In this document: positions 10,481 through 47,106 of the stretch, one piece after another | How the letters are laid out: the number at the start of each line of letters is the position of its first letter | Position numbering within the stretch: position 1 is the stretch's first letter | Origin: a virus | Length of the DNA stretch: 64,000 nucleotides | Virus record (IMG/VR): IMGVR_UViG_3300029953_000001 | Strand: one strand, 5' to 3' | Position numbers and translations under genes: made by a program | The notes under the pieces: model-generated | Told to the model about the DNA's origin: nothing | Databases searched by the model: none | What the model saw: only the letters and a program-made list of their open reading frames with translations

Positions 10481-10483
10481 AGA

Positions 10484-28942: not shown

Positions 28943-30196
28943 ATGAGTCTTCTTGCTACAATTAGCAGTGTAGAAAAGGGGCGTCGTGAGGTAAACCTCA
29001 ACGATGCCAATCGTTGCACGTGGGAGTGCCTCGTACCTGTCGAGCAGATTAACAAGCTCGATGTCACTCAGATTCCGTGGGCTAACATTCGTGTTGGCTA
29101 TAACAAGGACGGATACAAGTCCCCCTTCGCGAAGGAAATTCGGGATTCCCTGTACCTGCGTGATGGGAATTTTGACTCTCAGCACAAGGGCATCCGCATC
29201 ATCGCCGATAGTGCCAACCTCAACGACGGTAAGCTCACCATCAACTTCGGTACTCAGGCAAAGGTGGGTAACTTCAACACCAACACCCGTGGTCTCGGAG
29301 ATGGGGGAACCACGGTTCGTCTTATCAGCGAAGCGTTACGCGATGCGGCGGAGCCTTTCATTCAGGGCGAGTCGAAGCAGTATGTCCGGCTTTTCGTGTA
29401 CTGTGGCAACTACTCCAAGGAAGATACCTCCTCGATGGTCGAGGCGTGGAACACCGGCATGAACGCCAAGTCCTCGGACATGCTGAACTACCAGAAGAGG
29501 TTCGACGGTCTCAAGAAGATGCTGGACGGTAAGCCTTTTGGATTGACCCTCCCTAAGTCCGGTGTTCGCAAGTTCCCCTCAGTTAGCTACTACACGGGTG
29601 AGAACGCCGACTATGACATCACCGAAATCGTGCAGTTTGGCTGTCTGTTCGCCATGGACTCCGCCCGGACTGCATATACCGGCGTGGGGGGTTGCCTCTC
29701 GTTTTTTGAGAAGGAGGCAGCGAAGTTCAAGAGGGTACAGCCGCTCCTTTTCGACATCATTTACCTGTACGAGTCCATCATCAGCGAACTGCCTGAGTTG
29801 TATAACGGGACGGGTAAGAACGGGGGTGGGTTGGGTCGTTTCTTGGCCACGCGCCCTGTGGCTGCTGGTTCCAAGAGCCCCACTAACCTCCCCTTCGTTG
29901 GACGGGATGTTCCGTTCACTCCTCACAAGATGTGGGCTTTCCCGATGTTGGCGGCGTTCCGGGGTGCTATTGACTCGGATGCGGAGGACATCGGATGGCT
30001 CGTCAACCCCTTGGAACTCTTCCGTGCGGAGGGTGCCAATGTGTACAAGGAGATTTTGAAGACCTCAGATGTCTACGCTTCGGACTCCTTCAACATTGGA
30101 CGTGACAGTAATTTGTACGGAAACTTGCAGAACATGGTCGGTCGTGCTGCGGAGAAGGCCTACCGTAAGGGACTCTACCCTATCTCCGGTCGGTAA
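28943..30196 (+). CDS. ParB/DndB-like (DGQHR-like motif) protein, 417 aa
   Basis: RBS AAGAGGTAG. N-terminal region contains LYLRDGNFDSQHKGIRIIAD, resembling the DGQHR signature of DndB/DpdB-type ParB-fold proteins (G->S, R->K). Family assignment is a judgement from the motif only. Confidence 0.55.
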   Translation: MSLLATISSVEKGRREVNLNDANRCTWECLVPVEQINKLDVTQIPWANIRVGYNKDGYKSPFAKEIRDSLYLRDGNFDSQHKGIRIIADSANLNDGKLTINFGTQAKVGNFNTNTRGLGDGGTTVRLISEALRDAAEPFIQGESKQYVRLFVYCGNYSKEDTSSMVEAWNTGMNAKSSDMLNYQKRFDGLKKMLDGKPFGLTLPKSGVRKFPSVSYYTGENADYDITEIVQFGCLFAMDSARTAYTGVGGCLSFFEKEAAKFKRVQPLLFDIIYLYESIISELPELYNGTGKNGGGLGRFLATRPVAAGSKSPTNLPFVGRDVPFTPHKMWAFPMLAAFRGAIDSDAEDIGWLVNPLELFRAEGANVYKEILKTSDVYASDSFNIGRDSNLYGNLQNMVGRAAEKAYRKGLYPISGR

Positions 30197-30197
30197 C

Positions 30198-31022
30198 TCA
30201 TCGTTTGCAAATGTGAATCGCGGGGAGGTTATCTCCCCGCGATTCACATTGAATTGGAACCCCGGCTAACTTCAGTTCGGTGATGGAGTCGGCTACTCTC
30301 TTTTTCCTCCACGCAGCACGTGACTTAGCAAGCAGCTTCTCTTCTGGTGTGATGCTTCGCCACGAGGACTTGTACTCACACACCTGAGGTTCGGTGTAGG
30401 GTTTTATCCACTTGCAGAGCACAATCTTCTTGGAGACATCTTCACGATTGAAGGGGTTGCCGCGTAGTCCTCCCGTCAGCCCCTTCCCTACGTGGTTCTT
30501 TGTGTTTCCCGATGTTTCCCCTACTCGCTCCCAGTTGTCCGCAATGTAGAGCCCCCCTACACGCTGCGTAGTGGCGTCTAGCTCTGCGTACTCCACGAAG
30601 GTCTCAAACCCGTAAGGCTTCACCCCGTACAGAGCTTCCCAATCCTTGACGACAATCTTACGCCACATGGCAACAATTCTGGACGCCAGATTGGGTTCAT
30701 GTAGCTCCAGTCGGAACAGAGTGTTGTCGATGATACCGTTGATGACCTTCTCGCGGTTCTCCTTGGTTATATGGAAGAACTTGTCTCGCACGCTCGTAGC
30801 ATAGACAGCGGAGCCGCCAGAGATAGCTCCGACGTTCTGCCAGCCATCTACAGTCTCGTACCAAATGAGATAGTGAATCTGCTGTCCATGGTGCCCACGA
30901 ACATCACCCACGGCCTTCGACTTATCCGTCCGACCATCGGCGGACATCTTACGCACGTAGTGATTCTTCTCGAACACCTTGATGTCCGAACTACTACAGA
31001 ACTGAAAGAACAGTCGCTTCAC
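30198..31022 (-). CDS. hypothetical protein (274 aa), last gene of 4-gene accessory operon
   Basis: ORF overlapping upstream gene by 4 nt (ATGA coupling). No confident motif; C-terminal Cys/His cluster. Confidence 0.6.
   Translation of the reverse strand: MKRLFFQFCSSSDIKVFEKNHYVRKMSADGRTDKSKAVGDVRGHHGQQIHYLIWYETVDGWQNVGAISGGSAVYATSVRDKFFHITKENREKVINGIIDNTLFRLELHEPNLASRIVAMWRKIVVKDWEALYGVKPYGFETFVEYAELDATTQRVGGLYIADNWERVGETSGNTKNHVGKGLTGGLRGNPFNREDVSKKIVLCKWIKPYTEPQVCEYKSSWRSITPEEKLLAKSRAAWRKKRVADSITELKLAGVPIQCESRGDNLPAIHICKR
30208..30252. repeat. 20-bp perfect inverted repeat (hairpin, loop GTTAT) at the convergent junction of the 417 aa gene and the 4-gene minus operon
   Basis: CAAATGTGAATCGCGGGGAG-GTTAT-CTCCCCGCGATTCACATTTG read directly from the sequence. 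Lies in the last 18 codons of the 274 aa ORF; no U-tract on either side. Confidence 0.8.
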
Positions 31023-31711
31023 TTTTTCAACCCTTCATCAAAGAACACTTTCTGGCTGTCAGGGATAAACGTTCGGATTTTATCCGGGTCTTGAGGGCTA
31101 CGGAGAGTGAACCCATGCTCCACTAATGCCCAAAACATCTGATGGCGACTAATCAATCCCACTCGTTCGGTCTGTTGTAATGCAATAGAGTCTGGGATGT
31201 TGTCCGTGGGGATGAAGTGAATATTGACCTCTACCGCCCACTTAGCCTCAGGCGCGATGTTATATAATCCCTTTGTAGGGACGATGGTTTCACCCGTAAG
31301 AGAATGGTAATGATTGACAACCACATCATCGTACTTCGGTGGGGCTTCGAGGTAGAAGTGTACCTGTCCCGGCCCTACAAGGTATCCAAGGAACCGGGCT
31401 AAGTTACCCTCGCTGTCCCATACGAGCTTGTCAATGCTCAGGAACCCTGGACGCTTACGTTGTTCGATTTCCGCTTTAAGAGCAATCTCACGGAGAATGT
31501 TTTTGGTCATTTCCCGCTTGGCTTGAAAAGCGAAGGTTCTCTGGGAACCATCGGTGTATTCAACAATAACCTTGTCTCCGGGGGTGTCAATGCTGACCAC
31601 TTTGAATTCTCGGTCGGAGTAGTTAGGGCCTGTACGGTCTATACCTATACTTCCCACAGTAAATGTGTTGTCGTTCATTCTCTGAAATACTGTTACAGGA
31701 GCTTTCCCCAC
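31019..31711 (-). CDS. hypothetical protein (230 aa), accessory operon gene 3
   Basis: ORF overlapping both neighbours; no recognisable motif. Confidence 0.6.
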   Translation of the reverse strand: MGKAPVTVFQRMNDNTFTVGSIGIDRTGPNYSDREFKVVSIDTPGDKVIVEYTDGSQRTFAFQAKREMTKNILREIALKAEIEQRKRPGFLSIDKLVWDSEGNLARFLGYLVGPGQVHFYLEAPPKYDDVVVNHYHSLTGETIVPTKGLYNIAPEAKWAVEVNIHFIPTDNIPDSIALQQTERVGLISRHQMFWALVEHGFTLRSPQDPDKIRTFIPDSQKVFFDEGLKK

Positions 31712-32280
31712 CGCTGTTTTTTCATAAAAGTAATAGGGGTAATCTCATGACCATTGGGTCGGTTCGTTCGTTTACCTTGTGGGGTTCCTCCACATCCAGT
31801 TTTCTCCAGAACCCAACCTGCGGCTCTAAGACTGGTACCGGGCTCTGTTTCAAGAATGTAGGTTTGAATTTTTCTGTAGCCCATCGTTTTGGCGATACGA
31901 GTACAGGCACTGTAGAGAAGGCTACAGACGTTATCTGTACCATTTGTGACCAGTCGGCAGACTTCGAGGGTAAGCCCGTCGTCAAGAGCCATACAGGCAG
32001 GTCTCATACAAATAGCGGCACCCACCAACTTACCCTCTTTGGAGCAACCGATAGAAAACTTGGCGACTCGAATGGGCTTGTGGTGACGGTGTAGTTGGTC
32101 AACCAGTTCGTTAGCTTGGCGCAAATGGAGTGGTACGACTGTAAGCTTGGCTGCTTGTCTTATGGCTCGGGCGGCTTTTACTTCTACCCGTTTCCTATAG
32201 GCTCGTTGTGCTGCGGCGTGGTCTTTATGAATCTTAGGACGACCGACTTTACCCTTTGGTGATTTAATTAGTTTCATCAC
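31693..32280 (-). CDS. hypothetical DNA-binding protein (195 aa) with N-terminal AT-hook-like basic segment, accessory operon gene 2
   Basis: N-terminus KSPKGKVGRPKIHKD (GRP AT-hook core) and Arg/Lys-rich helix; globular C-terminal domain of unknown fold. Confidence 0.55.
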   Translation of the reverse strand: MMKLIKSPKGKVGRPKIHKDHAAAQRAYRKRVEVKAARAIRQAAKLTVVPLHLRQANELVDQLHRHHKPIRVAKFSIGCSKEGKLVGAAICMRPACMALDDGLTLEVCRLVTNGTDNVCSLLYSACTRIAKTMGYRKIQTYILETEPGTSLRAAGWVLEKTGCGGTPQGKRTNRPNGHEITPITFMKKQRWGKLL

Positions 32281-32746
32281 TTTGAGAGTTTGTTTTCCTG
32301 CACACGTGCTTAGCCTGTTGTTTTTCTATCCAAGCTATGAATACTTCTTCTCTTAGTGAGAATGTATGGGGAGAGAACGTGGGTAGGTCTTCCCCCTTAT
32401 AGGAAGTGAGGTCGAACCTCTTAAGTTCAGGTTGATGGTAAACGAAGTAGGCAGGAACCCCTAGAATACGAGCCATGTTCCGAACGTATGTCGAGTGGCG
32501 ATAGGCCCACAGTGGGCCCTTGTTCTGACGTTTTACCTCCCAAAGCAAAATCGGAAGGTTGCACATTGGGCATATGGGTACTACGTCGAAGTCACATGCG
32601 CGAATACCCTTAGGTTTCCGCATTGTGGCAGAGAAATCCAAGTCTCGGTCACCAGTTCGTTCCACATTGTTTTTAGTACCAACCATAAACTGAGAAGCCC
32701 TTGACTCACAGAAATTTGGAGCGGGTGGGTGGCTTCGACACCCCAT
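32264..32746 (-). CDS. PD-(D/E)xK nuclease, VRR-NUC-like (160 aa; alternative start at Met21, 32686), accessory operon gene 1
   Basis: Core GIRACDFDVVPICPMCNLPILLWEVKRQ matches D-x(n)-(hydrophobic)-E-x-K with a preceding beta-strand Asp, as in VRR-NUC (PDL...EVK). RBS TAAGGA before ATG 32746. Confidence 0.55.
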   Translation of the reverse strand: MGCRSHPPAPNFCESRASQFMVGTKNNVERTGDRDLDFSATMRKPKGIRACDFDVVPICPMCNLPILLWEVKRQNKGPLWAYRHSTYVRNMARILGVPAYFVYHQPELKRFDLTSYKGEDLPTFSPHTFSLREEVFIAWIEKQQAKHVCRKTNSQSDETN

Positions 32747-32772
32747 TCCTTATGGTGGAATTCCGTAAGGTC

Positions 32773-32801
32773 TTACTTAGATGACACCCGCTATGTATAA
32801 T
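32773..32801 (+). promoter_or_regulatory. promoter: -35 TTACTT, 17 nt, extended -10 TGTATAAT
   Basis: TGTATAAT at 32794..32801; same element recurs at 61743. RBS AGAGGAAAG and ATG 32835 follow. Confidence 0.5.
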
Positions 32802-32834
32802 ACTGATTATCCCCTCCACTAATAGAGGAAAGAT

Positions 32835-33215
32835 ATGCAATTTGTCTCTAAGTTTCTCCAAGCCGCAGTCACAGCCGACCTCAATCAGCTACGCGAATAC
32901 GCCAAGCAGGTTGTTGCGGGAGGCGTAGTCAAGCACGTGTATCTCATCGGGAGTACGGCGGCACGAGGTACAGGTCAGGACATCGACATACTCTATGACT
33001 TTGGAGATGCAGGTCTGGACAGAGATGAGGCGACCGCGACTGAGCAGCTTGAACAACTGGTTGAGAGTACCAGTATAGACTCTGACAGCTATGACTCCTT
33101 CTACAAGGTAGATGGTAGGTTCTTCCACCTGTCCTGTGGGGCCGGACGGTGCATCATTGAAAACACAGACTACGGAAAGGAACAGCAGGGTAAGCCTATG
33201 GTGACTCTAGCTTGA
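32835..33215 (+). CDS. minimal nucleotidyltransferase (MNT, pol-beta superfamily), 126 aa
   Basis: HVYLIGSTAARGTGQDIDILYD matches the hG[GS]x9-13Dh[DE]h NTase motif. No adjacent HEPN partner. Confidence 0.7.
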   Translation: MQFVSKFLQAAVTADLNQLREYAKQVVAGGVVKHVYLIGSTAARGTGQDIDILYDFGDAGLDRDEATATEQLEQLVESTSIDSDSYDSFYKVDGRFFHLSCGAGRCIIENTDYGKEQQGKPMVTLA

Positions 33216-33351: not shown

Positions 33352-34002
33352 ATGGGTCAGTTTTATGTCTATGAATACCTGCGTTCTGATGGTACCCCTT
33401 ACTACATAGGTAAGGGTAAGGAGGCTCGTGCCTTTCATCCTTACTACAGGGCTGTAGCCACCCCCAAGGACAAGGAACGTATCCGTTTTGTAGCTACGGA
33501 ACTATCTGAACCGGATGCTCTACAAGCTGAGATGTTTCTTATCTTCATGCATGGGCGTAAGGATAAGAGAACCGGGTGCCTTCGTAATTTGACCGATGGG
33601 GGGGAGGGTACTTCGGGGCATACCCACACTGATGAGTGGAAACTAGCTGCGTCGAAGAGAATGAAGGGGCACATAAAATCCCCACTTACTTGTAGTCGAA
33701 TAAGCAGTGCTAAGAAGGGTAAACCTGTCAGCCTAGCTCAAAAACAGAGTATATCAAGAGCCCTCAAAGGGCGGCTGTTCAGTGATGATACCCGCCAACT
33801 AATTTCTGCTGCAAAACGTAATGTCCCCCTTCCTTCAATGCGAGGGTCAGGAAACCCTCGTGCCAAAGTAACCGATGTTGATGTCATTGCGATTCGCAAC
33901 GGTAGTTTGAAGGAAAGAACTGCCCGAGAAAACCTCGGACTATCCCATACCCAATTTTACCGTTTGAAAAGAGGAGAACAATGGCAATTACAATCGACGT
34001 GA
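33352..34002 (+). CDS. GIY-YIG homing endonuclease with NUMOD3 DNA-binding repeats (216 aa)
   Basis: FYVYEYLRSDGTPYYIGKGK (GIY-x-YIG). C-terminal repeats RISSAKKGKPVSLAQKQSISRALKGRLFSDDTRQLIS are NUMOD3-like. 3' end overlaps the endolysin start by 22 nt. Confidence 0.8.
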   Translation: MGQFYVYEYLRSDGTPYYIGKGKEARAFHPYYRAVATPKDKERIRFVATELSEPDALQAEMFLIFMHGRKDKRTGCLRNLTDGGEGTSGHTHTDEWKLAASKRMKGHIKSPLTCSRISSAKKGKPVSLAQKQSISRALKGRLFSDDTRQLISAAKRNVPLPSMRGSGNPRAKVTDVDVIAIRNGSLKERTARENLGLSHTQFYRLKRGEQWQLQST

Positions 34003-34475
34003 AACTGAAGACTTTTCTTTCACTTATAAGTTGGAGCGAAGGAACGAGCATCGCCCCTCTCACCAAGAACCTTGGCTACGATGTCATCGTTACCGGCATC
34101 CACGGCCCCTCTGTGTTCACCGACTACACCGACCACCCGTTCGCCCATGGTGGCTCCGTGCAGTTCCACTTGAACCCACCTGAGTTCTCAACCGCTGCTG
34201 GCCGTTATCAGGTTCTGGCTCATTACTTTGAGGCGTACAAGGCACAGCTTGGACTCCCTGATTTCTCACCAGCATCGCAGGACAGGGTTGCCATTCAGCA
34301 AATCTCTGAACGCAATTCCATCCACTTGATTGAGCAGGGCAACATCGCGGGAGCCATCACGGCGTGCTCCAACATTTGGGCATCGTTCCCCGGCAATGAC
34401 TATGGACAGGGCGGTCACTCACTTGCCGGTCTGGTCGCCAAGTACACCGCTGACCTAGCCGCTCTTGGCGGCTAG
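33981..34475 (+). CDS. R: endolysin, lambda R-like lytic transglycosylase (164 aa)
   Basis: Collinear match to remembered phage lambda R: FLSLISWSEGT / GYDVIV / FTDYTDHP / AAGRYQ / LGLPDFSP.SQD.VAIQQISER / CSNIWASFPG. Confidence 0.85.
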   Translation: MAITIDVKLKTFLSLISWSEGTSIAPLTKNLGYDVIVTGIHGPSVFTDYTDHPFAHGGSVQFHLNPPEFSTAAGRYQVLAHYFEAYKAQLGLPDFSPASQDRVAIQQISERNSIHLIEQGNIAGAITACSNIWASFPGNDYGQGGHSLAGLVAKYTADLAALGG

Positions 34476-35200: not shown

Positions 35201-35788
35201 TCAATAGCTACTAATACTGCTCCTGAAGGGTGAGTTCACCATAGATATATTCACGGCTGTAAAGTCATTTCTCCGACCCCAGAGCCATGCTTGCCTTTCA
35301 TCAGAAAAGTACACATCCACAACAGGCCGAGACTCTCCGGGCATAATATCCACGAACCGGGCGATGGTCTTCTTGTGACTGTGTTTTTGAACAAGAACAA
35401 TGAGGTCGTTCATGTGGGCGTGTAGATGGCTCTGTGCCGCTGGGGACAGGGCAACGTATACGACCGCATTCTCAGGCAGCGTATGTTGGGCAACTGCATA
35501 GACGTGTTCCACGCTTCTTCCGTTCGCGAACTTGGCGTTCGGCGACGATGACTTGGTGTAAGCGGTCACCTGTACTGGCGTCTGATTTTTTTCGAGGAAC
35601 CCCAGTTTACCTTCAGCAACCGCGAGGCGGGTTTGGACTTGCTTCAACTGGGTCTGGGAGAGATTGAGGTCTTGCTGGGTTTGAGTGAGTTGACACACGA
35701 GGGCATGATTCTGCTGATGCAGAACCTCAACCATCGTGCAAAATGCAACAGAGATGAATAGAGCTAAAATTAGCTTGAGTTTGTTCAT
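35201..35788 (-). CDS. secreted/membrane-anchored coiled-coil protein with C-terminal 3D (MltA-like) domain, lysis-module associated (195 aa)
   Basis: N-terminal hydrophobic segment LKLILALFISVAFC. Q/L-rich coiled coil. C-terminus GRSVEHVYAVAQHTLPENAVVYV...FVDIMPGESRPVVDVYFSDERQAWLWGRRN resembles the 3D domain (…IDxYF….A..FGRR). Confidence 0.55.
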   Translation of the reverse strand: MNKLKLILALFISVAFCTMVEVLHQQNHALVCQLTQTQQDLNLSQTQLKQVQTRLAVAEGKLGFLEKNQTPVQVTAYTKSSSPNAKFANGRSVEHVYAVAQHTLPENAVVYVALSPAAQSHLHAHMNDLIVLVQKHSHKKTIARFVDIMPGESRPVVDVYFSDERQAWLWGRRNDFTAVNISMVNSPFRSSISSY

Positions 35789-35922
35789 AGCGAGTGTGGG
35801 TTGTTCGGACTACTGACAATGCGCTCGTATAACTCCTTTCGCCATCTAAGTAGAATACCAGAGGGGCTGGGGTTTGAATACATAAAACGTTATGTGGTTT
35901 AGATACAGTAGGTTACCTGCAC

Positions 35923-35958
35923 CAAAAAATAAAAGAGACGCCTCCCGTGTGGGAGGCG
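35923..35958 (-). terminator. rho-independent terminator for the tail gene block (minus strand)
   Basis: Minus strand reads CGCCTCCC-ACAC-GGGAGGCG followed by TCTCTTTTATTTTTTGG. Confidence 0.75.
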
Positions 35959-36007
35959 AGGCTCTACCTAATGATTAGATAGTCCCGAAATTATAAACTA
36001 CTTAGAT

Positions 36008-38962
36008 TCAACGAGTTAGCGGGATGTGGGGTTCGATGATAAACTGATTAGGTGTGATAGCTCTACCCACAACAATAATCCACTGGCAGTTGGTTGTGAC
36101 GTTCGAGTAGTCCTGAGTAAGGATTCCACCGACTGTAGCGTAGATGAGAGCACCTACAGTGAAGTTAGCTCCATCATATTCATAGACCCCGCCATAATTG
36201 GTACCCACGGTTATTGGAGCCCCTGCTGTGGCTGTGGAGAGGGTGATGCCGGAAACGATAGGGTATATAGGGTAGCCTTGTCCGTCCGTTACCACGGTAG
36301 TTGGGTCTATGGCTGACACTCCGCCATCACTCTGCACCATAACTGCTGTGAGGGGAATGAGATTGGTATTCGCGTTAAAGGTCAAGGTCGGGCTGGTACT
36401 GCTGGAGGGTATGCTTACGGTAGCTGTAGGTGCTGAGGAGGATGTGATAGTCGCGGAGATGTAACTACCAGTCATAACCTGCTGAGCCGTGGTAAGACCA
36501 TGAATCGCGATGACCTGAATTACATCTCCCTTGTTGAGAGACTGAACAATGGACATTTGAATGGTGGTTGGCCCTGTCTGAGTTCCGTCAGTGGACACAG
36601 TATCGAGCACCGTAGTACTGTTCAACATAAGGTTAGCCGTGCGGTAGCCCAAGCCCCCAATACCCCAATTAATCTCAACTACGATGGCATAGTTACCTGT
36701 AGCCTGAGCGGTAAAAGTGTTATCACTTGTGACGTTCCCTGTCAAGTCGAAATCTACTTGGTCAAAGGACACAGGGAGACCCGCTTGTCCAACCGGCACT
36801 GAGTTGATAACCGAGTTAACTTCTGCCTTCCAGCCCACGTTAGTAAAATCCTGAAGCAGGAATTGCTGTTGCTGTATAGCCGACTGAATGGCAGTACTAA
36901 TAGTTGTTCCCTGCTGTTGCGCTGCTGCATAGCTCAAGTTAGTGCGGAGCATCGCTATCTGCGTGCCAATAGGCAACTGCTGAATGTCGGGTCGCATGAG
37001 AAATGTGTTCGGGTTAAAGGTCGTCCCCTGCCACCCGGATTGTCCCGCTGCGGGTCCCCCATTGGTGGAGAAAGTAACCACTGGGGCCTTGGGAATCTGA
37101 AGCAGAGGGTAGCCCGGAACCCATGTACGATTGCGGGTAGCCGCGTCCGCCTTTAGCTGGTTGTAAATGGTGAGGTCGCCTAGTGGGTCGATAGCTGAAT
37201 CTAACGCAGCCGGGTAGCTCACCACGAACTGAACAAGGTATGGGTCTTGCAGCAATAGAGCTTGAAGGTTCGCGTTGAAGGTACGCCAAAACTGGGTGAA
37301 ACGGTCAACGAGCTTGGCCTCCGCGAACTGGTCGTAGATGAACTTGAACTGGGGTCTAGTCGTGGTGTACGTCGGTGTGTTCTTGATGTTTGTGTCCGCG
37401 AGAGCAATTACTTCCTGCAACACGTTCCCTATAGCAGAAGGGAACGTGCAGGGAGTCGGGTACTCTGCCTCACCATTACCGAGAGTGACTGTGGATGTGA
37501 CGGTGGGGTTGACGGAGGTAGCCGTGTAGTCAAGGTCGGTGCCAGTGAATGAGGATACGTAGTTAGGGCTCACGTAGGAATCCCAAAGCTGGCTGCGGGT
37601 GTAACCAAGTAGAGAAGCTTCAAGATAGGAAAGCTGCCACAACAAGTTACCTTGAACCGTTGGCGTGGCACCAGTCAGTGTGGCGATGAGGGGAATAGCC
37701 TTGGGAGCATTGCTCAATGTTGTGCTGGGGAGGACGGCGTTCCATGGCGTCGGAGTCGCTGCCAGATAAACCAGTGACGGGGATACCAGTTGGGTGTACG
37801 CGACTTGGAAGTTTTGAACCCATGAACCTAAGCGTCCGTTACGAGCCGACGCCAAGTAAAAGAGCCATGCAGATGTTAGGTTAGGGTCGAAGTTGGACGC
37901 TACCACCTGTTCGAGTGTGACAAAGTGTACCATAGCCTTACGCAGGTTGGCATTGCGAACGGTGAGGTCAGGGTTGGCATAGTCTGGGTCGGTTGGTTCA
38001 ATCGTCTGGTCGCGGAGGGTCGGGACGATGGAAACGATGTTGCCCTGATAGGTAGCTGATGGCATCTGGTAGTTCGAAATGATGGTCGAGGGATCGGGCA
38101 CTGCACCCTGCATCGAGTGGTTGACACTGAACGGGTTGGCAAGGTTGGTCGCCGCGTAAGTAGGTGGAAGAAAAGTAGGGGTCGAGGTTGAGTTCTCCAT
38201 CGTAGTGATGAAGTTAGGGTCACTCAAGTCCTGCCCAGTATTGGGGATGAGACCACCGAGGGGGGGGACGAAGGCGGATGTGCCAAATTGCAAGCCACTG
38301 TAGGTCTGAATGGTGGTCGGATAATTCGAGAAGATATTGATGTTCGGAACGTGGAGCACGCACTGATTGAAGGCGAAGTTGGTGTCGAACTTCAAGCTCT
38401 TCGCCGTCAATGCAAACGCGCTGAGAGGTACGAAGTTGAAGCCATTCCAATGCCAGATGGTGTCGGAGAACAGATTCGGGATGGCCGGTAGGTTGGGAAG
38501 ACCCCAGTTACAAATCTCGTTCAGGGTAAGAGCAAGGGCGTTCAGGTTCTGCTGCACCATGCCCACAAGGTTCAACTCCATCGACTGAAGGATACCGATG
38601 TTCTGAGTGACAGCCGAGATGAGACCAATGATTTCCTGCTGATAGTCGTTGATGCCCTTGATGATTTTGATGGAGTCTGCCACGTACTTTATACCACGTG
38701 GAAGGTCAGACAGCTTGCCATCAATGGCAAGGTTGTTCATGTTAGTGTAGAGGTCTATCTTCTCCATCAGGTCCTTCTTTTTTTGAAGGAGCCAATGCTG
38801 TGCATCGCCGATGTTCCGTTCAAGTAGACGACCGTCTTCAAGAGCTTTATGGTAATACTTCTCAATCGTGGGGTCGCCGAGAGGGGATAGGCGTGTCACC
38901 GCTCCTTTTGCCTTTATGGGCCACATCTCGGCGTTCTGTAGGTCTGTAGTAAAAGTCGCCAT
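36008..38962 (-). CDS. large tail/baseplate protein (984 aa)
   Basis: Long ORF at the distal end of the tail block, N/T/S/Q-rich; preceded by the duplicated GGTAAGGCAAG element. Confidence 0.7.
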   Translation of the reverse strand: MATFTTDLQNAEMWPIKAKGAVTRLSPLGDPTIEKYYHKALEDGRLLERNIGDAQHWLLQKKKDLMEKIDLYTNMNNLAIDGKLSDLPRGIKYVADSIKIIKGINDYQQEIIGLISAVTQNIGILQSMELNLVGMVQQNLNALALTLNEICNWGLPNLPAIPNLFSDTIWHWNGFNFVPLSAFALTAKSLKFDTNFAFNQCVLHVPNINIFSNYPTTIQTYSGLQFGTSAFVPPLGGLIPNTGQDLSDPNFITTMENSTSTPTFLPPTYAATNLANPFSVNHSMQGAVPDPSTIISNYQMPSATYQGNIVSIVPTLRDQTIEPTDPDYANPDLTVRNANLRKAMVHFVTLEQVVASNFDPNLTSAWLFYLASARNGRLGSWVQNFQVAYTQLVSPSLVYLAATPTPWNAVLPSTTLSNAPKAIPLIATLTGATPTVQGNLLWQLSYLEASLLGYTRSQLWDSYVSPNYVSSFTGTDLDYTATSVNPTVTSTVTLGNGEAEYPTPCTFPSAIGNVLQEVIALADTNIKNTPTYTTTRPQFKFIYDQFAEAKLVDRFTQFWRTFNANLQALLLQDPYLVQFVVSYPAALDSAIDPLGDLTIYNQLKADAATRNRTWVPGYPLLQIPKAPVVTFSTNGGPAAGQSGWQGTTFNPNTFLMRPDIQQLPIGTQIAMLRTNLSYAAAQQQGTTISTAIQSAIQQQQFLLQDFTNVGWKAEVNSVINSVPVGQAGLPVSFDQVDFDLTGNVTSDNTFTAQATGNYAIVVEINWGIGGLGYRTANLMLNSTTVLDTVSTDGTQTGPTTIQMSIVQSLNKGDVIQVIAIHGLTTAQQVMTGSYISATITSSSAPTATVSIPSSSTSPTLTFNANTNLIPLTAVMVQSDGGVSAIDPTTVVTDGQGYPIYPIVSGITLSTATAGAPITVGTNYGGVYEYDGANFTVGALIYATVGGILTQDYSNVTTNCQWIIVVGRAITPNQFIIEPHIPLTR

Positions 38963-38972
38963 TATCCTTGCC

Positions 38973-39230
38973 TTACCCTTGCCTTACCCTATCAATGACC
39001 CGTCGTATAGCTTTAAGCGGGTACGAGTAGTCGTTGTTGTGCAGATACGCCCTGAAGAAAAACTCAAACTCAGGGTCTTGAATGTCGTAGCCATCTTCCT
39101 CTACATAGAAACGCAAGGTGTCAACGATGGCTTGGTCCCCATCATCGTCATCCGGCTGGCCGTCATCTTCAACGTCATCGTGCTCCAAGAGCCAGTCAAT
39201 CTTATTCGCGTTGAGGTCGTCTTGATTCAT
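38973..39230 (-). CDS. small acidic protein (85 aa)
   Basis: ORF packed between the 766 and 984 aa genes; very acidic (D/E-rich). Confidence 0.5.
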   Translation of the reverse strand: MNQDDLNANKIDWLLEHDDVEDDGQPDDDDGDQAIVDTLRFYVEEDGYDIQDPEFEFFFRAYLHNNDYSYPLKAIRRVIDRVRQG

Positions 39231-41530
39231 TAGCTGTTCTCGTCCGATACATAGTCGCCCTGATTGTGAACGATATCCGGGGCCTCTGTTGTGTGCCTCG
39301 TCATTGCTGACTGGATAATCTTCTGAGCCGACTGTACATGGTCGGTCTTAGTGGTACCCCGGAAGGTTGCACATTCCAAGATGTAATCTCCTGTGATGTG
39401 CTCGTGCTTGTTGCCCTTGATGAGTAGGTCTACGTCACCGTTGATTTCCAACCGCAAAGCCTTCTGTTGCTTGTTCTGACCGATGGTCATTTCAACCCCG
39501 CCATCGAGAGCCGCTGTGAGCGACCGTCCTAATTGGTCTGCTCCTACCGCAAGCACGATAGCCCCGGCAAGGTCGAGGAGTAAGGACTGACCAGAGGCTG
39601 GGTTGCTGCCAATGCGGAGGAGAACGTCCCGTACCGCGTGCAAGTCAACCGATAGACCGTGAGCATCGGCATTCGTCAGTGGAGCCCCTGACCAGTTGTA
39701 AGGCAGCATGTTGACTTGTGGCGTGCCCACCTGTGTAAGGTCGTGAAAGGCATAAATGTTATCCCCGGCTCCGTAAGTGGGGCGACCGGGTGAGTGAGAG
39801 TCGAGACGGCTGGTTGAAGTCACAGCGTACGGCGTCTTACCCTGTCCATCCTGATAGCCGTTAACAAGGTGACGACGCTTGGAGTTAGGGTCACGGGCAC
39901 CAATACGGGCTACGAAGGCACCATCAGCCGCGAGGCGTAGGGAGATGTTCTCCGCACCAGTCTTATTGGTGAGGTCACCGGCATCGCCAGCGGCCAGCTT
40001 GGGGGCTGTCCAATAGTTGAGTGTACGCTGCTGCACCGAGTCATTCTTGCTCCGAGTCTGGGTGAGCACTGTGCGACCACGGTCGGGGAGAGAGGTATCG
40101 TCGGCACCGAGACGAATGACGCTCTGACCCAAAGCTTGAAGGTCGATGGCATCTTCCTCATCGCGGTTCTTTCCGACAACCAGCTTGAGGGAACCTACAA
40201 GGTGACCTTCGAGAGAGCGACCGGCACCATGCGGGTGCTCATACCCTCCAGCCAGAGGGATGTTCTCCTTAGGCATCGTGGCACCAATTTCAAACGATGT
40301 GAATCCTTCCTTGGTAACGTCCCAGCGAGTGGTGTTGTACTCGTAGGGGAAGCGGATGGAATGGCAGGATGCAGCCAAGCGTGCTTCAACATGGTCAGCC
40401 GAATCCACGGCAGGAATGTAACCCGACTCAAAATCAGCACCGAAGCGTCCTTGCTGAGTGTAGGGACTAAGCACCGGTTTGAGCACCATACCATAGGTGG
40501 ACTTGTCGAACAGGTTGTACCCCACCAGAGTGCCCGTGGTCTTTTCCGCGATGAAGCCACGACGCTGAGGCGTGATGCCCTCGGCCAATGTGGGACCTAC
40601 AGGAGCCGACTCTGCTCCTGCAATAGGATGGTCGAAGCCTTGGTTAGCGAGGTATGATTCACTGTCAAATGAAATTTCACCTGTCGTCTGGATAGTAGTG
40701 CGTTGCCATGGGTCAGCCGTAGTTCCTAGAGCAAAGTCAAGCAAACTACTCTGAAGAATCTCAGGAGTGAGAGGATAGTCAAGAGCGTATTCCTGAACTC
40801 TGTCCGTCTGCTCCGACCATGCGATTACATCCTGCTCACCGGATATATAACGGTCGGATGGTTGAGCATTAGGTTGTAGATACACAACTGATTCCTTGGA
40901 GCCATCAGGTAAGACGACAGGGGTGACCGTAGATGCTCCGGGACGGGTGACTGCACCCTTGAACTCAATGCCAGAGTGCGTGTACTGGAAACGTGTGCCG
41001 GTCATCTGCACCCAGAGACGACGGTGGGTATCCAACCGGTCGCGAGTCATGTCCTGTGACGACTTGTCCCAACCGGCATCTACCTTCTCAGTGTAGCCCG
41101 AAGCCATGGATACTGCACGCTGTCCGGGATATGCCTTGCGGTAGTTGCCACGGACACGACGGTTGACGATGGGAACCTTCGTCCCCATGTTGTATCCAAT
41201 TACATCCTGAGACCGTTGAATGTCAGTTACAACTGGAGTGAGTAGAGCGTACTGAACATAACCGTTGTCATAGAAGATAGGCACGGTGAGAAACAGGGCA
41301 CCCTCTTCCGGCATCGCCACGTCGGAGGACTCGGCTGAGTTGGAGTTAGCGGGAAGGATGTTTACTTCTCTCAGAATAGCCCCGTTCCGAGTATCCATAA
41401 GCGAAGCAATACCTCGCTCCCAGTCCATGGTCAGAATGGATGCTACAAAAACTTGGAATTGTTCCTCACTGCGCTGGGCAGCGTGAAGCGGGGGTCGGTA
41501 CTCATTCGCTCTTGTTGTTGAATATCCCAT
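39230..41530 (-). CDS. tail/baseplate structural protein (766 aa)
   Basis: Long ORF coupled to neighbours in tail block. Confidence 0.7.
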   Translation of the reverse strand: MGYSTTRANEYRPPLHAAQRSEEQFQVFVASILTMDWERGIASLMDTRNGAILREVNILPANSNSAESSDVAMPEEGALFLTVPIFYDNGYVQYALLTPVVTDIQRSQDVIGYNMGTKVPIVNRRVRGNYRKAYPGQRAVSMASGYTEKVDAGWDKSSQDMTRDRLDTHRRLWVQMTGTRFQYTHSGIEFKGAVTRPGASTVTPVVLPDGSKESVVYLQPNAQPSDRYISGEQDVIAWSEQTDRVQEYALDYPLTPEILQSSLLDFALGTTADPWQRTTIQTTGEISFDSESYLANQGFDHPIAGAESAPVGPTLAEGITPQRRGFIAEKTTGTLVGYNLFDKSTYGMVLKPVLSPYTQQGRFGADFESGYIPAVDSADHVEARLAASCHSIRFPYEYNTTRWDVTKEGFTSFEIGATMPKENIPLAGGYEHPHGAGRSLEGHLVGSLKLVVGKNRDEEDAIDLQALGQSVIRLGADDTSLPDRGRTVLTQTRSKNDSVQQRTLNYWTAPKLAAGDAGDLTNKTGAENISLRLAADGAFVARIGARDPNSKRRHLVNGYQDGQGKTPYAVTSTSRLDSHSPGRPTYGAGDNIYAFHDLTQVGTPQVNMLPYNWSGAPLTNADAHGLSVDLHAVRDVLLRIGSNPASGQSLLLDLAGAIVLAVGADQLGRSLTAALDGGVEMTIGQNKQQKALRLEINGDVDLLIKGNKHEHITGDYILECATFRGTTKTDHVQSAQKIIQSAMTRHTTEAPDIVHNQGDYVSDENS

Positions 41531-41538
41531 GACACCCT

Positions 41539-44424
41539 TTATGTAGTGCTCTTGTTACCATTCAGTAGTTTGCTGACAAAGGTCTGAGCTTGCTGGTCTG
41601 AGGATGGTGTTACCCCCAGAGCATTGGGGATTTGTGTGTTGTTTGTCGGAGGAGTGACTGGACGATACAGCGGGGTGAGATTACTAGGAGGGGGCGGTCC
41701 TCCCGAAACAAAAAAGTCTATACGATTTGCAACATCATCCAACGAGTCGGCGATGTCGTTGTCAGGTTGCGTGTCCTTGGTACCGTTTTGGGGAGTCCCC
41801 GGTGGCGGAGTCACCAACTCAAAACTCGTGGCTGATTGTTCAAAACTGGATAGGGTGCTCAGCTTGGACATCTCAGATGCCAGCGAGGCGCTGGGGTCAA
41901 TCGCAGAAGGAGAACCTACTCCCGCGAAGAGGAACACGTTGGCTCCGGTGATGGACTGAGTTTCGAGGCTGTTCACAGCCGTGGTCGTGAGAATGCCTAG
42001 TCGGGTTTCGAGCAACGCTTCGTTGAGAGACTTCCACCGTCCCCATGGAAACGGTGTAAGCAGTTCATATCCACCTTCGTCCGTGTAAGGCTGAGCGGTG
42101 AGAATCTTCTGCATGTACCATATATTGATACCAGTGGATGGTGTCTTGTTGGTGGGGGGTTGCTGACCGTTGCTTGTGGTCTGAGTCACAGCTTCATCCT
42201 GAGCCGGGACGAGCCAGTTGGACTTAGAGAAGAAGGGTTGTCCAATAGGAACAGGTGCTCCACTACAGTTGGTGAACTTACCATCTGCCTGTATTGTGGT
42301 TTTGTCGTTTTGCACGCGGAAGCTCTTAGTCGTGGTGTCCGCCTTAGTCTGCCACGAGGTTCCCCACTGGTTACGTCGGTTGCTGATGACTTCCCAATCC
42401 TCCTGATACACAGGCTTGTTAGGGGATTGACGTTGAGTGGCTGGTGAATTAACCAACTTGGCTTTGGAGTTAGAGGACACTCCCCCACTTCCCGACGCGG
42501 TGCTGGCCTTCTTGTTTGTAGCGTTGGTTGCCTGTGACTGACCAGTGGCCGTCGTGGGGTTTGTTGTCGTTGTGTTAGCGGAGCTAGGTGGTTCCGTCCA
42601 CTGCATCACAAGGTTGGGCTGTGTTGTGTAAATTACCTTGTCCTGCGTAGTTCCTGTGCTGCTGCCAACTGGGTGGGTTGCAGGGAACATCGGACGCTTA
42701 CGCAAGCTGTCAAGCGTAATGGACATCGTGGCTGCGTTGCCATACTGATACTGGATACTGATGTTCTTGATGTACCCATACATATCCTTGTGAGGAAGAT
42801 ACATAGGAAACCCCAGCTTCAATTCAGGACGCAGAGGGATGGTCAGTGTGTAGGTCTTCCAGCTACGGTTAGCACGCACCAATTCACATACCGCATATGT
42901 ATACAAAGCGATCTTACTCCCATAACTGAGCCATGGGATTGGCCGAGCCGGTTCTTCCCGCACACCAAACTTAGCTAGTTTAGGGATGTCGATGTGCGTG
43001 ATGGTGGGGAGCACCTGACGGGTGGATTCAGGGCTAATCATACCGTTCGTGATGATGGGTGTCTGCACCGTCACACGAGTTGCACGGATGCCCTGCTCAT
43101 CTTCTGTCTCACTCTCAGTTTCAATCTCGCTCAGGTGGACGACGAATGGGTTGCTGTCTGTCCGCAAGTTGAGATAGGTGGGGTTCTTGCTGGTGTTGGT
43201 CGAATCGGTCACGTTGGTCACATCGAGGTTGTACAGGGGTGGTTTGAAGATGATGGTACCGTCCACGTCCTGAAATCCCTCATAGCCGATGGACTGAAGA
43301 ATGGTACGGATACGCTCTAGGCGATTCGTGATTCTTCCGTTAGTTAGCTGCAAACTTCCGATAGCCGTGTCCATCTGATAGTTTCTGATGAGTGACACGT
43401 AGAAGTCGGAGTTGGTCGCTTGTTCAACGAGAGATACCTTAGGGGAGACAGAGAATCTCGCGGGGATGTAGGAAGGGTCAGATGACCCCTGACTCTCTGG
43501 GTTTAGTCGTGTGCTGTTATTGTCGGCAGAGTCAGGGACGGGCTGGTCTTTATCCGACGGACCATCCTTACCCATGAGGTAACCTGTGATGTGAACTTCA
43601 CGACGCAGGTTATCAAGGATAGGTTGCCATTTGTTGATGTATCCGGCTTCTACTGCTCCCGCCCAATCGTCCCCCTCTTGTCCCTGCTTGTTCAACTGGG
43701 CTTGCTGGATGCTGGTGATGGTAAACTGGTCAGTCGAGATGGGGCGGGTGAAAACATCGCCAAGCATTTGGTAGGGATTCATACCATACTGATTGGTCTG
43801 ATAGGGCACAACGCTGCTATCCGAGTTTGTCAAGCTGGCCGGTGCGAGGTCGGTGTACATCAAAGCCAAGAAGTGAAGGATGCCAAGGCACTGAATCGAA
43901 ATCTGTAACACCATGCCATTGTCTTGATGGTTGACGTTGGTTGTCAGCCCCTTGAAGACCCGGTAGTAAATAGTGTTACCGCTTGCCGATGCGAAGTACC
44001 CCTTGGCGAATACCTGTACTTCCATCATACTTTCGATGAGGTTGTTTCCCCCCGGAGACTGATAGAGATACTTCTGATGATTAGGTACCGCGAGGGAAAA
44101 GTTGGCGGTGGGTACAAGGTTGTCCACATCGTAGGTCGCCTGAAACGATTGCACATGGTCGTTGAAGCTCACATAGGTATAGGAGCTAGGGTGGCTTGGG
44201 TTCGTCTTTGTGTCTTCAACGTAGGGGTTAACCAGATATGTCTTACCATTCAGATATATGATAATGTCAGGGGCCGTCTTAATGATTTCACGTTCCTGAA
44301 CCGTCTGCATTATGTTGCGGATGCTGTGGTTCCCTCCGGTTGCTTGGACGTTTACTTTTAACGTAGGTACGCTTCCGGCTGTATTGCCGGTGTTGGTGGT
44401 CGAGTTTGAAGTGGCGTCTGACAT
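41539..44424 (-). CDS. tail/baseplate structural protein (961 aa), possible tail-associated hub protein
   Basis: Long ORF, third gene after the putative tape measure gene. Confidence 0.65.
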   Translation of the reverse strand: MSDATSNSTTNTGNTAGSVPTLKVNVQATGGNHSIRNIMQTVQEREIIKTAPDIIIYLNGKTYLVNPYVEDTKTNPSHPSSYTYVSFNDHVQSFQATYDVDNLVPTANFSLAVPNHQKYLYQSPGGNNLIESMMEVQVFAKGYFASASGNTIYYRVFKGLTTNVNHQDNGMVLQISIQCLGILHFLALMYTDLAPASLTNSDSSVVPYQTNQYGMNPYQMLGDVFTRPISTDQFTITSIQQAQLNKQGQEGDDWAGAVEAGYINKWQPILDNLRREVHITGYLMGKDGPSDKDQPVPDSADNNSTRLNPESQGSSDPSYIPARFSVSPKVSLVEQATNSDFYVSLIRNYQMDTAIGSLQLTNGRITNRLERIRTILQSIGYEGFQDVDGTIIFKPPLYNLDVTNVTDSTNTSKNPTYLNLRTDSNPFVVHLSEIETESETEDEQGIRATRVTVQTPIITNGMISPESTRQVLPTITHIDIPKLAKFGVREEPARPIPWLSYGSKIALYTYAVCELVRANRSWKTYTLTIPLRPELKLGFPMYLPHKDMYGYIKNISIQYQYGNAATMSITLDSLRKRPMFPATHPVGSSTGTTQDKVIYTTQPNLVMQWTEPPSSANTTTTNPTTATGQSQATNATNKKASTASGSGGVSSNSKAKLVNSPATQRQSPNKPVYQEDWEVISNRRNQWGTSWQTKADTTTKSFRVQNDKTTIQADGKFTNCSGAPVPIGQPFFSKSNWLVPAQDEAVTQTTSNGQQPPTNKTPSTGINIWYMQKILTAQPYTDEGGYELLTPFPWGRWKSLNEALLETRLGILTTTAVNSLETQSITGANVFLFAGVGSPSAIDPSASLASEMSKLSTLSSFEQSATSFELVTPPPGTPQNGTKDTQPDNDIADSLDDVANRIDFFVSGGPPPPSNLTPLYRPVTPPTNNTQIPNALGVTPSSDQQAQTFVSKLLNGNKSTT

Positions 44425-47104: not shown

Positions 47105-47106
47105 AA

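Follow-up and report, generated by a model that had tools for sequence, protein, structure and literature searches.

The window analysed here, a 64,000-nt stretch of viral DNA (IMG/VR record IMGVR_UViG_3300029953_000001), carries four adjoining minus-strand genes at positions 30198–32746, and the question that they raise is what such a compact cassette does for the phage that encodes it. The original prediction regarded the cassette as an accessory conflict module, possibly for anti-defence or DNA modification. This broad guess fits the evidence, whereas its gene-by-gene reading had to be revised. We propose, with a probability of roughly one half, that the locus is a phage post-replicative DNA hypermodification (anti-restriction) module built on two GNATs of the Mom branch. 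The partner set around these Mom-like enzymes has not been described before. The proposal is based on folds, family memberships, conserved Mom catalytic motifs and gene linkage; substrate, donor and chemistry are predictions.

Layout of the operon and its flanks

The features of the region are as follows:

28943–30196, plus strand, 417-aa protein, probably of the AIPR family, convergent with gene 4
30198–31022, minus strand, gene 4, 274 aa
30210–30227 and 30233–30250, arms of a hairpin with 18 perfect bp and a 5-nt loop
31019–31711, minus strand, gene 3, 230 aa; probably 219 aa, with its start at 31678
31693–32280, minus strand, gene 2, 195 aa as the longest ORF; the probable start, the ATG at 32277, gives 194 aa
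32264–32746, minus strand, gene 1, 160 aa as the longest ORF; the probable start, Met21 at 32686, gives 140 aa
32747–32834, 88 bp of intergenic DNA separating the divergent gene 1 and 126-aa gene
32835–33215, plus strand, 126-aa possible minimal nucleotidyltransferase

Conserved homologues of all four minus-strand genes are found elsewhere, and the genes are therefore real rather than chance ORFs, as originally predicted. The tight overlap ascribed to them holds for the longest ORFs (17, 19 and 4 nt). Gene calls on 20 further contigs of this phage, and homologue N-termini, favour starts that give 140, 194, 219 and 274 aa; with these, genes 1 and 2 overlap by 14 nt, genes 2 and 3 lie 14 nt apart, and genes 3 and 4 overlap by 4 nt. 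Similarly, the operon runs against the phage gene flow only locally: both flanks (28943–30196 and 32835–33215) lie on the plus strand, whereas most of the window (563–26741 and 35201–50996) is minus-strand. The neighbourhood is an accessory island with homing endonuclease and endolysin genes. A megablast search of the 4.4-kb region against 50,697 GenBank phages returned no match, nor did tblastn searches of the same phages with genes 4 and 3.

The operon had been described as closed off by a 20-bp perfect hairpin. A perfect hairpin is indeed present, but it has 18 bp and lies within the 3′ end of gene 4, inside its last 17 codons, beginning 14 nt past the stop of the 417-aa gene. Folding yields −35.5 kcal/mol on one strand and −33.7 kcal/mol on the other (z about −6.5). 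A terminator scan did not call the hairpin, which has no clear U-tract, and for this reason an intrinsic terminator was rejected. Situated between convergent genes, the hairpin is possibly a bidirectional transcript-end structure. At the other end of the operon, the 88-bp region is presumed to be the promoter region; it contains an 8-bp inverted repeat at 32748–32770, and a promoter scan found one plus-strand promoter-like site in it (32781–32810) and no minus-strand site at threshold.

Genes 2 and 4 and their relation to Mu Mom

Judging from its sequence, gene 2 is a Mom-like GNAT acyltransferase of the XF1762 family. It scores 155.8 bits (E 6.4e-46) against the NCBIfam model XF1762_fam (NF045478, curated cutoff 50 bits) over profile positions 2–142 of 143, and it reaches phrog_1384 ("Mom-like DNA modification protein") at E 1.8e-29, a family which Mu Mom itself reaches at 7.8e-84. 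Gene 2 is 39–48% identical to the XF1762 copies of other phages and has the invariant motifs HRH, RP, E..R, S.LY and E.G.SLR in common with them, whereas it differs in a basic N-terminal extension of about 45 aa, which precedes the 150-aa GNAT domain, and in belonging to a multi-gene operon with a second GNAT. The original prediction took this gene for an AT-hook protein, and the GRP motif is there; however, the GRPK is confined to the N-terminal extension (and is kept in loci L012 and L021), and the defining part of the protein is the GNAT domain. XF1762 proteins annotated as "Mom-like DNA modification proteins" are carried by the temperate phages Samy, ZF40 and phi1026b, and no biochemically characterised member of the family was found in the literature searched. 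Searched against the PDB by sequence and by profile, gene 2 gave chance matches only.

Gene 4 is a DruA/DUF4338-type GNAT acyltransferase, DUF4338 being a GNAT domain (PMC10853773). Its match to Pfam DruA (PF14236) reaches 41.4 bits over profile positions 79–233 of 297, above the gathering score of 27, which overturns the earlier statement that gene 4 was one of two proteins without a placeable motif. PF14236 is also carried by nearly all homologues listed for gene 4, and the PADLOC DruA1 model gives a marginal match (17 bits, E 6e-4). The AlphaFold2 model of gene 4 is confident, and its closest solved structure is Mu Mom (PDB 8bv8); in a Foldseek search with gene 4, Mom lay outside the top 50, and a PDB profile search with the gene 4 family gave chance matches only. 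One gene 4 homologue reaches phrog_1384 at 8e-5.

Restriction enzymes are blocked once the glycyl adduct made by Mom has rearranged to N6-carbamoylmethyl-adenine. Mu Mom transfers the glycine of Gly-tRNA(Gly) onto adenine N6 of double-stranded DNA; its residues R111, S124 and R151 are essential, H58 is important, and an HTH-like insertion (residues 175–209) is essential for activity (PMC13219725). The alignments of genes 2 and 4 to Mom are of low probability (34–44%), and it is at this level that the gene 2 family matches Mom in hhalign (E 2.4e-4), with the invariant H64, R109, S120, E146 and G148 of gene 2 aligned to Mom H58, R111, S124, E150 and G156, respectively. In the profile–profile alignment of gene 4 with Mom (E 4.2e-4, likewise low in probability), H21-Y22 falls on H58-Y59, N111..S114-R115 on N121..S124-R125, and Y159 on Y159, suggesting that the H58/Y59, S124 and Y159-region motifs are conserved. 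Mom R111 aligns with L102 of gene 4, the near-invariant R104 being two residues off.

While both genes resemble Mom in being phage-encoded and of the GNAT fold, several differences are apparent. Sequence identity to Mom is about 15%, and Mom R151 falls in an alignment gap against gene 2 and has no aligned counterpart in gene 4. The roughly 30 residues that follow the aligned core of gene 2 are too few for the essential HTH-like insertion; the gene 4 model continues after residue 165 with a beta-hairpin and a long helix. Moreover, Mom is "a single viral enzyme" that works by itself, controlled by Com and Dam (PMC13219725), whereas two divergent paralogue-type GNATs are found here in one operon, together with three further conserved partners. 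Since a direct hhalign comparison of the gene 2 and gene 4 families is not significant (E 0.15), the relationship between the two genes rests on the separate link of each to Mom.

Partner proteins and genomic context

Homologues of gene 4 were not returned from IMG/VR by a single-sequence scan, which came back empty, and an alignment-based scan was needed. They sit in phage replication and DNA-metabolism modules with polymerase A, primase, UvrD helicase and PD-(D/E)xK exonuclease, and have ParB_N-like, DndB or AIPR proteins as neighbours; an Acidobacteriota genome holds a copy with 79% identity, within an island that also carries an integrase. The Mom-like genes of other phages also have ParB-like neighbours. 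In Burkholderia phage vB_E253, a Mom-like gene is followed by a partitioning protein, and in Microbacterium phage Antuna, a ParB-like nuclease is followed by a Mom-like gene and then by tRNA-Gly. In the 64-kb window, no tRNA genes were found, and there is hence no hint of the donor from this side.

Of the cassette genes, gene 3 accompanies gene 4 most often, being present in 31 of 104 raw loci and in 11 of the 47 non-redundant groups with upstream sequence. Its structural model suggests an N-terminal Tudor/SH3-like barrel followed by a conserved C-terminal domain without assigned fold; because the model is poor (pLDDT 65), only the Tudor-like barrel is trustworthy. A PDB profile search with the gene 3 family gave chance matches only. 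The original prediction offered the co-occurrence of all four genes in other genomes as its own test. The pair of genes 3 and 4 is indeed common, whereas the full set occurs together in only about three lineages, recurring in L012 and L021/22 in a different order. Gene 4 is the hub of the module, and its partners are interchangeable.

The 417-aa protein scores 19.4 bits against Pfam AIPR (PF10592), which is under the gathering score of 25, while four homologues, which match the window protein at E of about 1e-170 to 1e-230 with a family HMM, score 25.2–34.9 bits. Its homologues adjoin gene 4 homologues in 10 other loci; in L073-76, L091, L095, L098 and L100-101 they lie directly upstream of the gene 4 homologue on the same strand. 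Because of this recurrent proximity, the 417-aa gene is probably a fifth member of the module. The earlier description of a ParB/DndB-like neighbour was roughly right, in that the AIPR family, to which the protein probably belongs, has an N-terminal domain tied to DndB in the literature, but it placed outside the module a recurrent partner of gene 4. Elsewhere, a true DndB-family or ParB_N-like protein stands beside gene 4. DndB and AIPR/AbiU1, relatives of the ParB superfamily, are known as attachments of DNA-modification and restriction–modification systems; here such proteins are coupled to a GNAT rather than to phosphorothioation or methylation genes. When the AIPR-like, DndB-like and ParB_N-like partners were compared by hhalign, a common ancestry was not confirmed, and the link between them comes from the literature only. 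Two small faecal contigs labelled "Bacteriophage sp." that match gene 2 and the 417-aa protein were set aside as unrelated fragments.

On the other flank, the 126-aa gene is a simple neighbour: it accompanies the cassette exclusively on contigs of this phage and has no link to the module in other lineages. Its description as a nucleotidyltransferase corresponds to a weak Pfam Polbeta match (E 0.084) and a GS...DxD motif visible by eye.

Gene 1 had been called a VRR-NUC-like PD-(D/E)xK nuclease based on the motif DFDVV...LLWEVK. This motif is present, and its acidic residues are strongly conserved in a family that comprises 96 cluster representatives among 1.84 billion proteins: D52 and D54 are kept in 63/63 members and E70 in 62/63. 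However, the lysine of the motif, K72, is Lys in only 17 of the 63 members, the others including Ala (18), Thr (15) and Ser (7), and with the nuclease lysine not conserved the PD-(D/E)xK call is unproven. Gene 1 itself has no match in Pfam, PHROGs or NCBIfam, and PADLOC gives only CARF at E 0.047, below threshold. A Pfam scan of the 63 family members gave scattered single-member chance matches (best E 0.0012) and no nuclease family, and the best match in a PDB profile search with the family, the MARF1 NYN domain, is not significant (E 0.08). Also conserved are C59 (60/63), C62 (61/63), H147 (55/63) and C149 (47/63), which together make up a Cys2-His-Cys pattern resembling a zinc site. Gene 1 is found with gene 4 in only 13 of the 104 loci, suggesting that it is dispensable for gene 4 function.

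The proposed modification module and its alternatives

With two Mom-related enzymes in its operon, the module most likely modifies the DNA of the phage itself and thereby shields it from restriction by the host. In the mechanism that we propose, bases of freshly replicated phage DNA would receive an activated acyl or aminoacyl group from each of genes 2 and 4, the two enzymes perhaps differing in the sequence context on which they act or working one after the other. Gene 3 would work specifically with gene 4, as a subunit that docks onto DNA or protein through its Tudor-like barrel. The 417-aa AIPR/DndB-like protein would bind DNA and either regulate the modification or act as a nuclease, and gene 1 would be a metal-binding accessory or, speculatively, a nuclease that spares modified DNA.

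The same enzymes may also be read differently. Both GNATs could act on proteins or RNA, inactivating a host defence protein or acetylating charged tRNA, with genes 1 and 3 as adaptors. AcrVA5 is a GNAT anti-CRISPR that acetylates and inactivates a host defence protein, and TacT-type toxins acetylate charged tRNA; AcrVA5 and TacT, together with Naa60 (representing generic protein N-acetyltransferases), are among the significant or near-significant GNAT matches in the fold searches. In addition, gene 2 is without the HTH-like insertion of Mom, the GNAT substrate range is very broad, and Mom substrates are not predictable from structure (PMC13219725). We consider this reading unlikely. The DruA assignment of gene 4 suggests instead phage-borne defence or superinfection exclusion, in which the AIPR protein, the DruA-like gene 4 and the nuclease-like gene 1 would attack competitors or trigger abortive infection. 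A Druantia type I locus consists of DruA, DruB, DruC, DruD and the large DruE helicase, and gene 4 resembles its DruA in the Pfam match above threshold, in the weak PADLOC match and in the GNAT domain; the AIPR family is named after abortive infection, the cassette belongs to an accessory island and has a homing endonuclease nearby, and the closely related gene 4 copy of Acidobacteriota is in an integrase-bearing island. However, PADLOC found no DruB–E or other known defence component in the 16 proteins scanned (those of the cassette and its flanks, six in number, with seven of the window's ten ORFs of at least 900 aa and two neighbours), and membership in Druantia was rejected on the absence of DruB–E from this set. 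None of the three remaining ORFs in this size class reaches 1,000 aa, and all are thus much smaller than DruE. Gene 4 homologues are moreover embedded in lytic-phage replication modules, in contrast to the bacterial defence islands of Druantia I, and the Mom-like gene 2 is a classic counter-defence gene; a defensive role is therefore less probable still.

A further reading combines marking with attack, i.e., restriction–modification in reverse, in which phage DNA would carry a mark set by the GNATs, and the unmarked DNA of host or competitor would be degraded by gene 1, the AIPR protein or both. T4 combines hydroxymethylcytosine with host-DNA nucleases in this manner. The coupling of modification-type enzymes to a DxD...E acidic-cluster protein (gene 1) and to proteins of the ParB/DndB/AIPR type, which include nucleases and NTPases (PMC10853773), is consistent with such self-versus-host discrimination, as is the ParB-like nuclease adjoining a Mom-like gene in Microbacterium phages. 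However, the candidate nuclease, gene 1, has neither a conserved lysine nor fold evidence for this activity, and its absence from most gene 4 loci argues that gene 4 functions without it, which makes this the least probable of the readings weighed here.

Returning to the preferred reading, DNA hypermodification by Mom-branch GNATs, a wider proposal can be made, which we hold tentatively as possible rather than probable. DUF4338/DruA would be a sister clade of Mom that installs an undescribed DNA hypermodification together with a gene 3-family Tudor partner and ParB/DndB/AIPR-type proteins, both in mobile elements and in a large set of uncultivated phages from soil and peat; DruA of Druantia I would be a DNA-marking enzyme, and the genome of the window would be doubly modified through its additional XF1762-type enzyme. 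Recent work established Mom as the founding member of a class of charged-tRNA-using, DNA-modifying GNATs whose relatives were flagged as unexplored (PMC13219725), and the locus ties Mom to the DruA/DUF4338 family by structure, motifs and genomic context. If the prediction fails, the cassette is an ordinary accessory cassette of an uncultivated phage from soil or peat. The locus also offers a defined and compact partner set for the DruA/DUF4338 protein. If true, the prediction would mean new DNA chemistry for anti-restriction biology and for DNA-modification tools, as well as a clue to the role of DruA in Druantia: if DruA marks DNA, then Druantia I would be a modification-dependent system that distinguishes self from non-self.

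Organization of the cassette and its surroundings

The ORF listing placed the four minus-strand ORFs exactly at the originally predicted coordinates, between two plus-strand genes (lengths for genes 1 to 3 are those of the longest ORF):

28943-30196, plus strand: flanking gene, 417 aa, convergent with gene 4
30198-31022, minus strand: gene 4, 274 aa
30210-30227 and 30233-30250: arms of a hairpin with an 18-bp perfect stem and a 5-nt loop
31019-31711, minus strand: gene 3, 230 aa
31693-32280, minus strand: gene 2, 195 aa
32264-32746, minus strand: gene 1, 160 aa
32748-32770: inverted repeat, 8 bp (CCTTATGG ... CCGTAAGG)
32835-33215, plus strand: flanking gene, 126 aa

The window's phage is represented by at least 20 further metagenomic contigs of identical arrangement (the longest 80,962 bp), on which gene callers give 140, 194, 219 and 274 aa for genes 1 to 4. 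Because these calls and the N-termini of homologues both favour the shorter starts, the supposed tight overlaps are really a 14-nt overlap, a 14-nt gap and a 4-nt overlap. The predicted 20-bp perfect hairpin is indeed perfect, but measures 18 bp; it is highly stable (−35.5 and −33.7 kcal/mol, z ~ −6.5), carries no U-tract, and lies within the final 17 codons of gene 4, a tail predicted to be disordered in the gene 4 model. The inverted repeat, directly upstream of the gene 1 start codon in an 88-bp divergent intergenic region, could be an operator. The cassette opposes its immediate neighbours, but not the gene flow of the window as a whole, which is mostly minus-strand. The accessory island that contains the cassette is bordered on each side by a block of very large genes, several of them resembling tail or structural genes.

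Two further features were observed on the plus strand. At 33352-34475, a GIY-YIG/NUMOD3-type homing endonuclease gene (phrog_314, 9e-12) is followed by a lysozyme-like endolysin gene (33981-34475; phrog_90, 2.7e-45), whose start it overlaps by 22 nt. At 57211-60633, a 1140-aa ORF matching Pfam LAGLIDADG_3 (1.7e-9), Intein_splicing, RNR-II_ins_dom and Ribonuc_red_lgC looks, by its domains, like a B12-dependent (class II) ribonucleotide reductase split by a LAGLIDADG homing-endonuclease intein.

Relationship of genes 2 and 4 to Mom

Gene 2 had been taken for an AT-hook protein; the GRP motif is present, but within a ~45-aa basic N-terminal extension, common to the nearest relatives only, of a GNAT resembling Mom, the DNA-modifying enzyme of phage Mu. 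Gene 2 matches XF1762_fam, the NCBIfam family of Mom-like proteins, at 6.4e-46 (155.8 bits, cutoff 50), and phrog_1384, "Mom-like DNA modification protein", at 1.8e-29, the latter matched by Mu Mom itself at 7.8e-84. The family profile aligns with Mu Mom (E 2.4e-4), setting the invariant H64, R109, S120, E146 and G148 opposite Mom H58, R111, S124, E150 and G156, respectively; Mom requires R111 and S124 for activity, with H58 also important (PMC13219725). Homologues with 39-48% identity occur in Streptomyces phage Samy, Pectobacterium phage ZF40, Burkholderia phi1026b-like phages, Mycobacterium prophages and others. Gene 2 belongs to an already known family whose biochemical role is a predicted one.

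Gene 4 matches Pfam DruA/DUF4338 at 1.3e-10 (41.4 bits, gathering score 27), and of its 141 homologues nearly all of those among the matches listed have PF14236. It belongs to Pfam DruA yet lies outside any Druantia system: PADLOC, run on the cassette genes and on seven of the ten ORFs of at least 900 aa (the other three are all under 1,000 aa), detected none of DruB-E. Synechococcus phages are known to carry structural DruA-like proteins. Among 50,697 GenBank phage records, no homologue of gene 4 or gene 3 was found. DUF4338 is described as a GNAT domain (PMC10853773). The AlphaFold2 model of gene 4 (29 sequences) is confident (pLDDT 85.1, pTM 0.83), and its top Foldseek matches in the PDB are all GNATs. 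The gene 4 profile (101 sequences) matches that of the Mom family (six sequences) at E 4.2e-4, with low hhalign probabilities for the Mom comparisons (34-44%). The alignment places the invariant H21-Y22 on Mom H58-Y59 and N111..S114-R115 on N121..S124-R125, and R154, G156, Y159, A161, N163, W164 and G168 on Mom residues of identical number; Mom R111 lies opposite L102 (R104 is two residues off), and Mom R151 has no match. One gene 4 homologue matches phrog_1384 directly (8e-5).

Partners of gene 4 across loci

We fetched 104 loci with a gene 4 homologue, chiefly from peat and soil metagenomes and including IMG/VR contigs and two Acidobacteriota genomes, and searched them with iterated HMMs, one from each window protein. 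Homologues were found of gene 3 (31 loci, almost always on the same strand just upstream of gene 4), gene 1 (13), the 417-aa protein (10, same strand, immediately upstream) and gene 2 (7). The loci collapse into 66 groups at 95% identity, 47 of which include 1.2 kb or more of sequence upstream. Among these 47, gene 4 is preceded by c0, a helix-rich partner protein with a conserved C-terminal tail, in 19 (~40%) and by gene 3 in 11, while gene 1 is present in nine, a ParB_N-like protein in seven, an AIPR-like protein in four and gene 2 in three. Given these counts, gene 4 is a hub with interchangeable partners, and the window holds an unusually full partner set plus a second, XF1762-type Mom-like enzyme. 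All four genes are conserved elsewhere, but within these loci the complete set is confined to the window's phage and locus L012 (gene order 4-1-2-3); different phages (L021/22) carry genes 4, 2 and 3. Further gene 4 neighbours (a true DndB-family protein at 50 bits, PD-(D/E)xK exonucleases, UvrD helicase, DNA polymerase A and primase) amount to phage replication modules.

The c0 tail, helical and ~55 aa long (ERD..LR.F..RL.S....), ends the ORF directly before gene 4, and the N-terminus is variable and often HTH-like (L014, 6291-7001; L023, 4857-5840; L005, 7375-8004; L044, 85-513). The window has no c0, and a long form of gene 3 adjoins gene 4 there. An Acidobacteriota genome carries, in an island with an integrase (L003, 5772-8804, and L004), a gene 4 homologue that shares 79% identity with the window copy. 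It directly follows an SprT-like protease and a DUF3631 protein whose C-terminal tail matches the c0 tail of many phage loci, an arrangement that points tentatively to hosts among the Acidobacteriota and to gene exchange linking phages with integrative elements. A second, divergent DruA/DUF4338 gene in L003 (14717-15592, 291 aa; Acidobacteriota MAG, contig_14051), between TnpB_IS66 and DDE_Tnp_IS66 transposase genes, looks like a passenger in an IS66-type element. In L012, the only other four-gene locus, the gene 3 homologue converges with a gene (5919-10637, minus strand) for a 1572-aa protein in which an ART-PolyVal domain is accompanied by a faint LAGLIDADG match.

From the window to L012/L021, identity is 78-79% for gene 2 but far lower for gene 4 (34-35%), gene 3 (42-49%) and gene 1 (40%), and gene order also differs; this discordance suggests that gene 2 was recently exchanged or is under much stronger constraint.

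Gene 1 falls in a small family, with 96 cluster representatives among 1.84 billion proteins, whose members stand alone, measure 120-170 aa and show invariant D52 and D54, near-invariant E29, R34, D35, S39, R43 and E70, and a zinc-like ligand pattern (C59, C62, H147, C149). Its original assignment as a PD-(D/E)xK nuclease is possible but unsupported, since the Lys of the supposed ExK occurs in only 17 of 63 members and the searches matched neither a nuclease family nor a solved structure. The 417-aa protein is probably a member of AIPR; its copy in the window scores just under the Pfam AIPR threshold, and homologues score at or above it.

A possible role in DNA modification

The Mom protein of Mu, a GNAT, moves glycine from Gly-tRNA(Gly) onto adenine N6 in dsDNA; the adduct then undergoes rearrangement to N6-carbamoylmethyl-dA, which shields DNA from restriction (PMC13219725). 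In our main reading (probability about 0.5), genes 2 and 4 would carry out related acyl or aminoacyl transfers onto phage DNA, gene 3 would be an obligatory-type partner of gene 4, and the AIPR/DndB/ParB-type protein may bind DNA, act as a regulator or act as a nuclease, on the model of DndB in phosphorothioation. The pairing of GNAT and ParB also occurs around classical Mom-like genes of Burkholderia and Microbacterium phages. In Microbacterium phage Antuna (L118, 1969-3228), genes for a ParB-like nuclease, a Mom-like acetyltransferase and tRNA-Gly(ccc) are adjacent, which fits the published Gly-tRNA dependence of Mom; its relatives Phonegingi and Warren share the ParB-Mom pairing.

The GNAT matches of the gene 4 model would also suit enzymes directed at protein or tRNA, an unlikely reading. 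Somewhat less likely still is a phage-borne defence module; the DruA match of gene 4 speaks for it, and the absence of DruB-E from the proteins scanned speaks against it. Least probable, and overlapping the main reading, is a pair that marks self and degrades unmarked DNA; gene 1, the AIPR-like neighbour or both might supply the nuclease, though for gene 1 the poorly conserved ExK Lys speaks against that role.

The most likely function of the locus, at roughly even odds, is DNA hypermodification that counters restriction. The literature searched holds no instance of DUF4338 and Mom being named together, and the DruA/DUF4338 papers examined make no tie to Mom and do not describe the gene 3 or gene 1 partners. 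Tentatively, DUF4338 proteins may constitute a second DNA-modifying clade, which would bear on how Druantia type I works.
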